Source: a phage
Direction: 5' to 3' (one strand)
Length of the DNA: 49,697 nt
NCBI GenBank assembly: GCA_026165385.1
Contig: GCA_026165385.1_4524.2
Each line of letters starts with the position of its first letter. Position 1 is the first letter of the stretch. Below the pieces are notes generated by a model that was given only the letters and a program-made list of their open reading frames with translations, made no database searches and was not told the DNA's origin. Positions 7,076-19,780 of this stretch are shown in pieces. A program made the position numbers and the translations under genes.

Positions 7076-7413
7076 CCGTATGGCCGTCTCTTGGTGAGAA
7101 TATTCTAATTTTTATTATGAGTATTGGCATGGGATTTGCCTTTGGATTAGTTGGATTTCTTATTGACGGAGTTGTGTTAGGATTTATAGGGAATACCGGT
7201 GGATTCACAGACCAATGGCAGGACTTACGGTATACCCAAGCCTTTGCATCCATCGCATCATTTTGTACTGTAGTCTATTTTTACTACGATTTTATAAACC
7301 ATAACAAGAAAAATAAAAAGGTTTACGCTTCTCAAATGATTAGTTATAATGAACTCCTAGCTAAACGTGAAAATGAAACAATCGAAAACTTTATTAAGGA
7401 ATGTAGAAAATGA
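7054..7413 (+). CDS. Small membrane protein, 119 aa, C-terminal NFIKECRK tail
   Basis: SD AAGGAAATAAG before ATG 7054; hydrophobic helices; the C-terminal motif is shared with the ORFs at 9562 and 10637. Confidence 0.6.
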   Translation: MQKPQLLTVWPSLGENILIFIMSIGMGFAFGLVGFLIDGVVLGFIGNTGGFTDQWQDLRYTQAFASIASFCTVVYFYYDFINHNKKNKKVYASQMISYNELLAKRENETIENFIKECRK

Positions 7414-7715
7414 GTAAGATTATTGAAATTAAAGTACCAGAGTTTAATGATGCCAAATCTGCTTCAGATGCAATTTATAAACTTCTGAATCAAGCTGAAC
7501 GTATCGAAGAAGAAGCAACAAAGATCGCAGACCAATATGCAGTATCGTTTTCTGTAGGTGATTATGGTAGCGGTCGTACTTATTATCCTAAGGGTGAAAT
7601 CGTATCCCAGTGGATGAAAGATGAAATTGAAAATAATGGTGGCGATGTTAAGCGTGAAGGTAATGGTTACGTTATTACTGAAGGTGCTTGGGTTTCGTCT
7701 TCTGCGTTGTGCTAA
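7410..7715 (+). CDS. Small protein, 101 aa, C-terminus GAWVSSSALC (tandem paralog 1 of 3)
   Basis: ATGA overlap with the upstream gene; the C-terminal WVSSS..C motif is shared with the next two ORFs. Confidence 0.6.
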   Translation: MSKIIEIKVPEFNDAKSASDAIYKLLNQAERIEEEATKIADQYAVSFSVGDYGSGRTYYPKGEIVSQWMKDEIENNGGDVKREGNGYVITEGAWVSSSALC

Positions 7716-7724
7716 GGAATCATT

Positions 7725-7997
7725 ATGTCTAAAGAACAAACCGAACTGGCTGAAGCTGTAGCAAAAATCTATGCAGCTATTGAGGCTGCCAAAGAAATTG
7801 CTGATAAACAAAACACAACATTCGACTTGTATCCAGCTTATGGTATGGGTGGAACCTATCATTCACCCGGACATCTTAAAGCCGATCTTGAACGTTGTAC
7901 AAAAAACGGCTATGCTGAATGGGCTGACGTTTACCAATACGACTACAACTTGAGCCTTGAAGACGGCGGTTGGGTTGCATCTTCTCACACTTGTTAA
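7725..7997 (+). CDS. Small protein, 90 aa, C-terminus GGWVASSHTC (tandem paralog 2 of 3)
   Basis: SD TAAGGAATCATT before the ATG; alanine-rich N-terminal helix and shared C-terminal motif. Confidence 0.6.
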   Translation: MSKEQTELAEAVAKIYAAIEAAKEIADKQNTTFDLYPAYGMGGTYHSPGHLKADLERCTKNGYAEWADVYQYDYNLSLEDGGWVASSHTC

Positions 7998-8006
7998 GGA
8001 AATCAT

Positions 8007-8204
8007 ATGTCTCGTGAATTAGACTGCGCTGTACGTACGGCAGTAGCTGCTCTGGAAAACCTGTTCCAGATTGCAACAGAAGAACGCGAAGAAGTTACAT
8101 TATGGATTGAAGATAACGCAGGTCTGAATCTCCAGGACGCGATCTCATTATCCCACAATAGTATCACTGTTCAAGGCTGGGTATCATCTAGTTATTCTTG
8201 CTAA
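8007..8204 (+). CDS. Small protein, 65 aa, C-terminus QGWVSSSYSC (tandem paralog 3 of 3)
   Basis: SD TAAGGAAATCAT before the ATG, near-identical to the previous intergenic junction; shared C-terminal motif. Confidence 0.6.
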   Translation: MSRELDCAVRTAVAALENLFQIATEEREEVTLWIEDNAGLNLQDAISLSHNSITVQGWVSSSYSC

Positions 8205-8208
8205 AACA

Positions 8209-8246
8209 GTTTACAACAAGATAGGGCTATGTTATAGTAGTCCTAT
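8209..8246 (+). promoter_or_regulatory. Early promoter with stem-loop (PeSL-type cassette)
   Basis: GTTTAC 8209-8214; inverted repeat TAGGGCTA / TAGTCCTA around TGTTATAGT; near copy of the element at 533. Confidence 0.5.
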
Positions 8247-8266
8247 CAAAACAAATGGAGTCCACA

Positions 8267-8506
8267 ATGATTTATTACGAAAGTATCGGAACCAAAGTGG
8301 TTGGTAAAACCATTACTCGTGAAAAGTTTGCAAAGATATTCGATATGCGTTATAAAAAATCTGAACACAAAGGCATCCGATTCGAAGATGCGCACTGTAC
8401 AATTTGTCCTTATAATGAAGACATAAACGGTACAATCGTTCCATTGGTAGAGGCTTCACATGATGACCTCTGGGATGAATATAATATCGCATGTCGTGAA
8501 ATTTAA
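8267..8506 (+). CDS. Hypothetical protein, 79 aa (alternative start 8255)
   Basis: ATG at 8267 follows GGAG; the upstream ATG at 8255 lies inside the ATGGAG SD-like sequence and has no SD of its own. Confidence 0.5.
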   Translation: MIYYESIGTKVVGKTITREKFAKIFDMRYKKSEHKGIRFEDAHCTICPYNEDINGTIVPLVEASHDDLWDEYNIACREI

Positions 8507-8534: not shown

Positions 8535-9491
8535 ATGATGTTAGTTATTGGTTCTCGTGCACTTCACTATCATGGTCTTATTGATTCTAACGCTATCAAA
8601 AATAGTGATTGGGACTTTATTGCGGACCAATGTTCTTGGAATGCATTCAAAAATCAAATGATGGGTGTATATGTCCACCAAGATAACCCTGATGTCCAAG
8701 TTTTCAAATGCTTCCATAATGGACGCGAAACTCATTTTGAAGCATATATTGTTCCGGCAATCACTAATGTCCGTGAATTAGTTGGTGAACTCACTCCTGA
8801 AGATTTCACGTCTTCTTATGACCTTTTAAAATACGCCAAGAAAAATTTGACTAAAGATCGTTTGAACGGGTTTTACTGGGCAACTCCTGAGATATGTCTT
8901 GCAATTAAGATGTCTCATCGTTTCAAGAAAAATAATCCATTCTTTTTAAAGACTATGAACCATATTCAGTATCTTCGTGGTAAAGGTGTTACACTGAACG
9001 ATGAACTTACTGAAATTATGCTGAAACGTCAGAAAGAAACCTTGAATTATGCTCACCCGGTTCTTGACACTTCTAAAAGTGCGTTCTTTAAAGATGACAT
9101 CTATACATATGACCATGATACCATTCATGAAGCCATTGCACTAACAGACCGTCCAGCGTATACATTTTATATGAAAGATGGTTCTGAAGTCATGACCTCA
9201 CGCGAGAAGTTCGAATCATTACCAGAAATGGTCAAATTGGCCGGCGTATACGAAGAATCATGTGTACTAGCGTTAGAACGTTCTCAGATTCCTAATAACT
9301 TTGAAATCCATCCACGTGATAGTTTTATGATGGCCCTTGAAAAGGTCTGTACATCAATCACATCAGGATGGTTCCGTGAGTTCGCTTGGGAAAACTACAG
9401 CAAAGTAGTAAGTATGTACCAAAGCTTGGGACATGACGATTACGTCAAACGTTTCAAACAAAATTTCCATATGGTAAAACCTTTCAAATAA
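8535..9491 (+). CDS. Hypothetical protein, 318 aa, possible nucleotidyltransferase fold
   Basis: SD GAGGAAAA; N-terminus MMLVIGSRALHYHGL...SDWDF loosely fits the Pol-beta-type nucleotidyltransferase G[GS]...D.D signature; N-terminus resembles the ORF at 21099. Confidence 0.6.
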   Translation: MMLVIGSRALHYHGLIDSNAIKNSDWDFIADQCSWNAFKNQMMGVYVHQDNPDVQVFKCFHNGRETHFEAYIVPAITNVRELVGELTPEDFTSSYDLLKYAKKNLTKDRLNGFYWATPEICLAIKMSHRFKKNNPFFLKTMNHIQYLRGKGVTLNDELTEIMLKRQKETLNYAHPVLDTSKSAFFKDDIYTYDHDTIHEAIALTDRPAYTFYMKDGSEVMTSREKFESLPEMVKLAGVYEESCVLALERSQIPNNFEIHPRDSFMMALEKVCTSITSGWFREFAWENYSKVVSMYQSLGHDDYVKRFKQNFHMVKPFK

Positions 9492-9503: not shown

Positions 9504-9541
9504 GTTTACACAATTATAGGACTATGTTATAGTAGTCCTAT
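9504..9541 (+). promoter_or_regulatory. Early promoter with stem-loop (PeSL-type cassette)
   Basis: GTTTAC 9504-9509; inverted repeat TAGGACTA / TAGTCCTA around -10; copy of the element at 533. Confidence 0.5.
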
Positions 9542-9868: not shown

Positions 9869-10555
9869 ATGAATAGTTCTAAAGTGTTTAATAGTCAAGC
9901 TCGTGCAGTAGGTGGTTTTGCTCATGCTATTAAAAACGACCAGATTAAAAACGAGCCTATGTTCTTCAACTGTAGTTTAGAATTTGCTTATAATAACGGC
10001 GGTCCTATTACTCGCAGCTTCATCATGAACTTGCCGGATGATTGGAACACCGACCAGGTTGTATTTGATTCACGAGTCCACATGCTGATGCCTGGCTGGT
10101 ACCCTGCTATTCCTGGATATCACCATGACGATGTTCCACGCCCTGATATTCCAGTTGGTCAACACTTTATTACTGCAGGACAACCTGACTATGACAACCC
10201 TCGTTACCATTCTGAACATATTCTTGGTCTTGTTAACGCTGATGTGTGTCCTACTCATTTTGCAACAGGAACTGCAGAGTTCAGTCAGATTCCTGATGGC
10301 GAACTTATCTATCGCCAGTGGCACAAAGAAGTCCTCGAAAAAATCGAAAAAGGTGAACTAGAGAAATGGGAAGCTCCAGACCGTACTCTTCTTCAGTTTG
10401 ATTGGCAAACATGGCACACTGGTTCTCGTGCAATTAGTAACGGATGGCGTTGGTTCGGACGTGTATCTCGTAATACAGACCGAGTTAAAAAGATTACCAA
10501 TGAAATTCGTGTCAATGCCCAAGTTTATCTGGAATTCCCTATGGAAGGCTGGTAA
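9869..10555 (+). CDS. Hypothetical protein, 228 aa
   Basis: ATG directly after the conserved junction motif GAATGTCGAGGAAAATAAT; Trp/His-rich, no recognised domain. Confidence 0.65.
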   Translation: MNSSKVFNSQARAVGGFAHAIKNDQIKNEPMFFNCSLEFAYNNGGPITRSFIMNLPDDWNTDQVVFDSRVHMLMPGWYPAIPGYHHDDVPRPDIPVGQHFITAGQPDYDNPRYHSEHILGLVNADVCPTHFATGTAEFSQIPDGELIYRQWHKEVLEKIEKGELEKWEAPDRTLLQFDWQTWHTGSRAISNGWRWFGRVSRNTDRVKKITNEIRVNAQVYLEFPMEGW

Positions 10556-19743: not shown

Positions 19744-19780
19744 TTTACATCTTGGTAGGACTATGTTATAGTAGTCCTAC
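19744..19780 (+). promoter_or_regulatory. Early promoter with stem-loop (PeSL-type cassette)
   Basis: GTTTAC 19744-19749; inverted repeat GTAGGACTA / TAGTCCTAC around TGTTATAGT; copy of the element at 533. Confidence 0.5.

Follow-up and report, generated by a model that had tools for sequence, protein, structure and literature searches.

Three small genes with a common C-terminal tail

The phage DNA analysed here (contig GCA_026165385.1_4524.2, 49.7 kb; hereafter the window) encodes three consecutive small proteins that end in the same cysteine-terminal tail, followed downstream by the gene of a protein with the signature of a nucleotidyltransferase. The three open reading frames (ORFs) and the enzyme gene are as follows.

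7410–7715, + strand: ORF1, 101 aa; type-1 Cys-tailed protein of the RB69ORF139c type, with a long helix, a GDYGSGRTYYP core and the tail AWVSSSALC
7725–7997, + strand: ORF2, 90 aa; type-2 Cys-tailed protein with a YGMGGTY core and the tail GWVASSHTC
8007–8204, + strand: ORF3, 65 aa; short type-3 Cys-tailed protein of the RB69ORF136c type, with the tail GWVSSSYSC and without the YG.G.TY core
8535–9491, + strand: nucleotidyltransferase partner, 318 aa; RB69ORF134c type, PHROG 2141, with a polymerase-beta-type head and a conserved helical domain

The window comes from a T4-type coliphage of the RB69 group (Mosigvirus, RB69-like genome), and the 3 kb surrounding the triplet are 98% identical to phages APCEc01 and JK45. 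In annotated relatives, the triplet consists of "hypothetical proteins" (RB69ORF139c to 136c type) between the homologs of e.3 and e.2, in the variable tRNA-to-lysozyme region. Two tRNA genes lie about 5 kb upstream of it in the window.

The initial annotation of this DNA, made from the letters alone, placed the ORFs correctly on the + strand and gave the right ends (GAWVSSSALC, GGWVASSHTC and QGWVSSSYSC) and starts (MSK, MSK and MSR). Its description of a helical acidic segment behind the start is broadly right as well: AlphaFold2 predicts a long helix for residues 15–43 of ORF1, and the three proteins have isoelectric points (pI) of 4.2–4.7. The shared tail is beyond chance. A six-frame scan of the window finds W[VILM][SA]SS..C before a stop codon three times, always in ORF1–3, compared with a mean of 0 in 300 mononucleotide shuffles and 0.007 in 300 3-mer block shuffles; four of the 227 stop-to-stop segments of at least 60 aa in the window end in Cys.

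The homology extends past the tail. Pairwise BLASTP aligns the three proteins with E = 7e-5 (ORF1 vs ORF2), 1e-3 and 1e-3, a YG.G.TY core is common to ORF1 and ORF2 and missing from the shortened ORF3, and all three match one profile (E = 2.4e-5 for the family hidden Markov model (HMM) vs ORF3). ORF1 and ORF2 match PHROG 899 (E = 1.3e-22 and 4.8e-19), and ORF3 matches PHROG 4882 (E = 7.7e-37), both labelled as of unknown function. Searches of Pfam, NCBIfam and PADLOC with ORF1–3 gave no family match above threshold, neither to HEPN nor to any other Pfam family, and the PADLOC-DB defence models gave chance-level matches only (E about 0.01).

A large phage family with a near-invariant tail

Looking for tail-bearing proteins in other phages, as had been suggested at the outset, reveals a large family in which the tail is near-invariant. 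A word-indexed profile search returned 57 relatives, and HMMER, run exhaustively against 1.84 billion representatives, gave 684 clusters (50% identity) with E ≤ 1e-3, 120 of them with E ≤ 1e-10. The members nearly all have 65–140 aa, with a median pI of 4.5, and the profile match reaches their last residue. Among 137 new representatives, 112 have the strict end W-x-[S/A]-S-S-x-x-C and 17 more end in Cys. In the tail logo of 183 Cys-ended members, W(−7) is found in 180, S(−4) in 182 and S(−3) in 180, with Ser, Ala or Pro at −5; in a small subfamily, one residue follows the Cys. The terminal Cys is the sole Cys in 106 of 194 members, and 39 of the 194 carry extra copies of W-x-S-S inside an acidic linker.

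While the bodies of these proteins diverge to about 25% identity, the tail stays; it is better conserved than the hydrophobic core and is the most conserved part of the family. Since the original profile contained the tail, we controlled for circularity by repeating the search of the fetched loci with a profile lacking its last 10 columns. This gave 104 unique matches, 93 with the strict tail and 101 with a Cys end.

Tailed proteins of 139–173 aa are built from the same helix-strand-tail module plus additional N-terminal domains, which have no match in Pfam. We thus reject the idea of a tag grafted onto unrelated folds, and regard the tailed proteins as one domain superfamily. Among 185,579 bacterial and archaeal species scanned, five matches turned up, all of them on metagenome-assembled contigs, and the module is essentially restricted to phages and phage-like contigs.

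Two close relatives of the triplet proteins are shortened and have lost the Cys tail: the RB69 reference copy of ORF1 (P0002, RB69ORF139c, 71 aa, ending ...SQWYEK) and one Mosigvirus copy of ORF2 (P0048, mar005P1, 75 aa, ending ...FTNTTTT). Both look like frameshifts, sequencing errors or natural loss of function. T4 Tk.1 (62 aa; L122 10346–10534, tk.1) matches the family profile marginally (E = 0.0025 in a small search); it has no Cys tail, and the match is probably due to chance.

The triplet consists of old paralogs

The initial annotation proposed a recent tandem gene expansion. Tandem paralogy is borne out; the recent date is not. Local identity between the three proteins is just 30–39%, and each belongs to a distinct type: type 1 ends in ..xMC, type 2 in GGWV[SA]SSxEC or TC, and type 3 is short. 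The same types occur in arrays of 2–4 genes in Dhakavirus, Edwardsiella phage PEi20, Klebsiella-type phages, a Yersinia phage and a 371-kb jumbo-phage contig. Dhakavirus has four copies, including a 65-aa member that the HMM does not catch, and Karamvirus and Aeromonas phages have a single copy. Because the distinct types and the arrays recur in these genera, the duplications behind the triplet must predate the genera that share them.

The two junctions are as described, TGC-TAA-GGAATCATT-ATG-TCT and TGT-TAA-GGAAATCAT-ATG-TCT. In this design (TG[CT]TAAGGA...ATG), which is also present in distant phages, the stop codon overlaps the Shine-Dalgarno sequence of the next gene, followed by a spacer of 9–10 nt; judged by their sequence, the junctions are sites of translational coupling. 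Their near identity does not require a recent duplication, because the overlap of TAA with the Shine-Dalgarno sequence and the fixed Cys-stop and Met-Ser codons constrain them. With a local identity of about 30% and with paralog types and junction design kept across genera, we reject a recent duplication.

The tailed genes are linked to a nucleotidyltransferase gene

In 34 of the 36 loci found via the small protein, the enzyme gene lies downstream on the same strand; in the other two, the contig stops at the array. Between the two genes, the gap is −37 to +59 bp in the most divergent loci, where they abut or overlap; in the T4-like genera, one to several variable small ORFs separate the array from the enzyme gene. 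When 80 loci were found via the enzyme instead, 70 had an upstream family member on the same strand according to the HMM, and inspection revealed variant tails (W-x-S-S-x-C and similar) upstream of the enzyme in 5 more. Grouped into lineages at ≤ 62% identity, the enzymes show the association in 21 of 21. No third gene family, such as a kinase, lyase, flavoprotein or RNA ligase, travels with the pair across the 21 lineages; the next-best shared neighbour, a metallophosphoesterase-like gene, is found in four.

The tailed proteins could nevertheless function independently of the enzyme, with the tail binding a host factor or a metal (e.g., at a Cys-thiolate site in a paralog oligomer), the proteins serving as decoys or inhibitors, and adjacency reflecting a shared pathway or co-regulation. 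Such a function is consistent with the hyperplastic character of the region, which also harbours the 57B gene and, in some records, a gene labelled nuclease inhibitor, with the 106 members whose only Cys is the terminal one, with the modelling of the tail within the fold (see below), and with the promoter and stem-loop that lie between triplet and enzyme gene in this phage. Linkage in every enzyme lineage without another common neighbour, and genes that abut or overlap in divergent loci, are hard to explain without direct coupling, and we therefore consider this alternative unlikely, though a genuine competitor.

The metallophosphoesterase-like protein (259 aa; L072 5198–5977) carries the GDIHGN...GDLVDRG...GNHE signature of metallophosphoesterases and Ser/Thr phosphatases. 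Its homologs are found at 14 loci from four enzyme lineages, directly downstream of the nucleotidyltransferase in jumbo-phage contigs, and it could remove a phospho- or nucleotidyl group. In a phAPEC8-like contig (L084 3788–4714), a frameshift splits the nucleotidyltransferase gene into parts of 55 and 209 aa; in the lineage of this locus, a detectable Cys-tailed partner is missing from four of eight loci. T4 has neither the small-protein nor the enzyme gene, and e.2 and e.3 are adjacent there. T4 nrdC.10 and nrdC.11 were considered as homologs and rejected, as they show no similarity.

The partner has the signature of the polymerase-beta nucleotidyltransferases

A Pfam scan of the 318-aa protein (E ≤ 0.1) detects DUF7277 and DUF7275 only. 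The protein has the defining features of the polymerase-beta nucleotidyltransferase superfamily, namely hG[GS]...DxD... with a third acidic residue in a mixed beta-sheet head, and an alignment of 36 diverse homologs shows that G6-S7, D25-x-D27 and E69, which make up this signature, are invariant. The conserved residues of DUF7275 are K125, H128, K139, R165, Y172, H174, P175, H194, D195, H198, E240, E241, E248, R249, K270, C272, S274, T276, S277, G278 and R281, a set that is intact in all 81 sequences examined. Of the cysteines in this second domain, C272 is invariant and C243 is mostly conserved. RlaP and CCA-adding enzymes were discarded as identities of the partner, since the Pfam scan gave nothing beyond the two DUF domains. 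The family is abundant: it comprises over 2,200 clusters (90% identity) and occurs in 734 phage records, including T4-like phages of many hosts and phAPEC8-like and phiPsa374-like phages.

A clade of shorter enzymes (248–263 aa) from Streptomyces, Gordonia and Vibrio phages retains both the GS...DxD head and DUF7275. Here, a different acidic ORF of 96–99 aa (pI 4.1–4.7) abuts the enzyme gene (L126 4094–4393, L127 4100–4390 and L128 2860–3153). These ORFs show weak mutual similarity (best E = 5e-4) and may constitute a second family of small partners. In Gordonia phage Aphelion (L127), a tRNA gene cluster lies about 1.2 kb from the enzyme gene, and in Streptomyces phage Muntaha (L126), a polynucleotide kinase gene lies about 2.7 kb from it. 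Proximity to tRNA or polynucleotide kinase genes in these two phages and in the window is a weak hint at an RNA-related role.

A role in RNA modification is central to the possibility that the small proteins are antitoxin-like regulators. The enzyme would then be a MenT-like toxin that extends tRNA 3' ends and stops host translation, and the small acidic proteins would bind it and plug or time its active site, in the manner of the 68-aa MenA1 on MenT1. Their acidic body would mimic RNA, and the tail would occupy the catalytic pocket. The gene order, with the small gene upstream, is compatible with that of the MenAT systems (MenT1-MenA1; AbiEii/DUF1814). However, the Pfam scan found no DUF1814/AbiEii match in the enzyme, and searches of Protein Data Bank (PDB) sequences with the enzyme and its profile returned no MenT. 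The C-terminal domain is DUF7275 rather than the four-helix bundle of MenT, and there are 1–5 partner paralogs with an invariant Cys-terminal tail. We know of no MenA antitoxin with such a tail. Moreover, one inhibitor would suffice, yet 2–5 diverged paralogs have been kept over long evolutionary times. The module occurs in phages and not in bacterial chromosomes, and what an antitoxin would do in a lytic phage is unclear. Finally, the enzymes of the short clade and those at partner-less loci hold all catalytic residues without this partner. We thus regard the antitoxin explanation as unlikely, to about the same degree as an independent function.

The predicted fold of the small protein

The AlphaFold2 model of ORF1 has a predicted local distance difference test score (pLDDT) of 91, and no PDB match to the predicted fold was found. 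In the monomer, the tail forms a strand (residues 93–96) and a helical turn (97–100), with a pLDDT of about 91 for residues 91–100.

A purely structural motif would account for this arrangement: W, S-S and C would close a small fold, the Trp being buried and a Ser capping the N-terminal end of the final helical turn. The model places W94 in the strand and S97-S98 at the start of the terminal helical turn with high confidence, and the larger tailed proteins have the same helix-strand-tail module instead of unrelated folds. Nevertheless, no structural role is apparent for an invariant, almost always terminal and usually sole Cys of a cytoplasmic protein, the tail is more conserved than the hydrophobic core, and W-x-S-S recurs internally in the linkers of 39 of 194 members. 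A structural role as the whole explanation is therefore improbable.

Regulatory elements and neighbouring genes

Five further features surround the triplet and the enzyme gene.

7322–7350, + strand: promoter-like site ahead of the triplet, within the 3' end of e.3 (TTTACG-17-TATAAT and GCTT-N14-TATAAT, of the T4 middle-promoter type)
8210–8246, + strand: early-promoter-like site (TTTACA-17-TATAGT with TG) that overlaps a strong stem-loop, where the triplet unit ends and the next unit begins
8255–8506, + strand: 83-aa ORF (PHROG 3723) between the triplet and the enzyme gene
9505–9541, + strand: second copy of promoter and stem-loop, following the enzyme gene; shares 82% identity with the copy at 8196–8262
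9869–10555, + strand: 228-aa ORF (PHROG 1843) downstream of the enzyme gene, with no match in Pfam or NCBIfam

The site at 7322–7350, a consensus match only, scores 10 of 12 in a sigma-70-type scan, and in phage SA79RD its homolog carries the annotation of a T4-type middle promoter, which points to early or middle (pre-late) expression of the triplet. The stem-loop at 8210–8246 has a fold energy of −16 kcal/mol (z = −5.0) and is an annotated terminator in SA79RD; together, these elements suggest that triplet and enzyme have separate transcription starts in this phage.

The promoter/stem-loop element of about 50 nt is present in four copies on the + strand (546–570, 8222–8246, 9517–9541 and 19756–19780), each consisting of GTTTACA-17-TATAGT with TG and the stem-loop TAGGRCTATGTTATAGTAGTCCTAT, with zero copies expected by chance. 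Two of them flank the unit of the 83-aa ORF and the nucleotidyltransferase. The element resembles the promoter-early stem-loop cassettes of T4-type phages, which have been described as places where gene modules are shuffled.

A homolog of the 83-aa ORF is found in the fetched flanks of 8 of the 36 loci, and the content between array and enzyme varies by genus; this ORF is a variable insert outside the conserved module. The 228-aa ORF is kept in 21 of the 36 loci, including Aeromonas CC2-type phages, and is absent from the most divergent ones. The record of Shigella phage JK45 (L001, MK962757) is classed as Tequatrovirus, although the region is 98% identical to Mosigvirus phages. Its label 'sulfurtransferase' does not apply to the triplet, as it sits on the e.4 homolog; this label and 'pyruvate formate-lyase' on a vs.6-like gene look like over-annotation.

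A proposed role for the tail

The initial annotation suggested that the tail could be a modification or interaction site. This suggestion is strengthened, short of proof, by the conservation of the tail as the most constant part of the family and by the linkage to an enzyme with a nucleotidyltransferase fold. From the family, its invariant tail, the linkage and the fold and signature of the enzyme, we infer a contact, a modification chemistry and a biological role. The three ORFs would be ancient paralogs in a phage-specific family of small acidic cytoplasmic proteins with the C-terminal sequence W-x-[S/A/P]-S-S-x-x-Cys, acting jointly with the DUF7277-DUF7275 nucleotidyltransferase encoded downstream. 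The tail would dock in the enzyme, which would transfer a nucleotidyl group to the hydroxyl of one invariant serine. Hydroxyl acceptors are the usual chemistry of the nucleotidyltransferase fold. The divergent bodies of the 1–5 paralogs would direct each modified protein to a different target in the infected cell, and the module would be active early or in mid-infection, in host takeover or counter-defence. We favour this reading tentatively, with a probability of roughly 0.45 that the tail engages the enzyme, most likely as nucleotidyl acceptor on an invariant Ser, and that the paralog bodies lead to different targets.

Since three intact-tailed types have been kept across genera, substrates or adaptors that share one handle fit better than a single inhibitor. 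Likewise, a non-structural early protein fits the data because of the promoter-like early or middle sites, the acidic composition and the lack of a Pfam match.

Several observations weigh against this proposal. In one enzyme lineage, four loci (one of them with the frameshifted enzyme gene) have no detectable partner, and a fifth locus, L059, is probably partner-less too. The intact enzymes at these loci retain every invariant residue, which rules out the loss of particular residues in partner-less enzymes. The short clade of actinophages and Vibrio phages is without a Cys-tailed neighbour, and a check of whether the tail tracks DUF7275 alone showed that these enzymes have the GS...DxD head yet lack such a neighbour. 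Because partner-less and short-clade enzymes retain the catalytic residues, the enzyme evidently has an activity independent of the Cys-tailed proteins. In Mosigvirus, a promoter/stem-loop and a variable ORF lie between triplet and enzyme, so that there is no strict single operon. The tail is modelled inside the fold and may be structural rather than a free docking peptide. Finally, serine nucleotidylylation alone leaves the strictly terminal Cys unexplained, and the small subfamily has one residue beyond it.

In a more specific version, the enzyme would covalently modify the S-S-S-x-x-Cys tail, by O-nucleotidylylation of Ser and possibly subsequent elimination and formation of a thioether ring with the terminal Cys, and would thereby activate the paralogs against different host targets. 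We consider this version doubtful, and less probable than either an antitoxin or an independent function.

In the most elaborate form of this chemistry, the tail would be cross-linked as in ribosomally synthesised and post-translationally modified peptides (RiPPs): Ser(−3) or Ser(−4) would be nucleotidylylated and eliminated to dehydroalanine, to which the terminal Cys would add, giving lanthionine or, after decarboxylation, aminovinyl-cysteine (AviCys). In epidermin-type peptides, C-terminal lanthionine and AviCys rings have the geometry S-x-x-C-COOH. The tail is reminiscent of these in having S-x-x-C at the extreme C-terminus, with S(−3) in 180 of the 183 Cys-ended members, an invariant spacing and a Cys that is almost absolutely terminal, and the second, highly conserved enzyme domain might carry out elimination or cyclisation with its invariant His, Asp, Glu and C272 and its mostly conserved C243. 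In contrast to epidermin-type RiPPs, the proteins here are folded and of 65–170 aa, their tail is modelled as part of the fold, and conservation is reversed, with an invariant 'core' and a variable 'leader'. The window neighbours scanned have no Pfam match to a LanB, LanM or LanKC dehydratase or a LanD flavoprotein, and no third family is shared across the enzyme lineages. We know of no nucleotidyltransferase-based dehydratase. Of all the explanations, such a cross-link is the least probable.

Comparison with known systems

The acceptor logic of the favoured model, nucleotidyl transfer to a tail serine, resembles that of the type VII toxin–antitoxin system HepT-MntA, in which a minimal nucleotidyltransferase adenylylates the adjacent small partner on a hydroxyl side chain. 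By analogy, a nucleotidyltransferase is encoded here beside a small partner. Unlike HepT, the partners have no HEPN domain, no Rx4-6H motif and no Pfam match, their predicted fold has no PDB match, and the proposed acceptor is a Ser in the C-terminal tail instead of a Tyr.

The holo-ACP synthases CitX and MdcG, acting on CitD and MdcC, provide a further analogy. A nucleotide-derived group is joined there by a phosphodiester to a Ser of an acidic carrier of about 100 aa, and the pairing of a nucleotidyltransferase-superfamily enzyme with a small acidic protein is reminiscent of the module. We saw no sequence or fold match, however; the acceptor Ser of CitD and MdcC lies near the N-terminus, and these carriers have no Cys tail. 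The aminoglycoside and lincosamide nucleotidyltransferases ANT(2''), LnuA and LinB differ in acting on small-molecule antibiotics without a dedicated protein partner, and have no sequence-level match to the enzyme.

Novelty and implications

Searches by gene name, DUF and PHROG number, sequence string and concept found no literature on either the small-protein or the enzyme family, and a comparative paper on jumbo phages does not describe the module. The database entries seen are unnamed or "hypothetical", save two that predict a nucleotidyltransferase and one evident mislabel. The lack of study is probably explained by the absence of the module from T4. A nucleotidyltransferase with a small protein partner is a known arrangement; the fold of this partner is new, and its strictly conserved Cys-terminal tail is unusual.

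The module is common in large lytic phages, including T4-like ones, of Escherichia, Klebsiella, Enterobacter, Acinetobacter, Aeromonas and Pseudomonas, many of which were isolated as therapeutic candidates. Any answer, whether substrate, regulator or adaptor, would reveal what two large families of viral "dark matter" do. The outcome may be a new protein modification or a new way in which phages control a MenT-like enzyme during host takeover; a covalent tail-modification system, if true, would represent a new enzyme–substrate class and a new viral post-translational chemistry.

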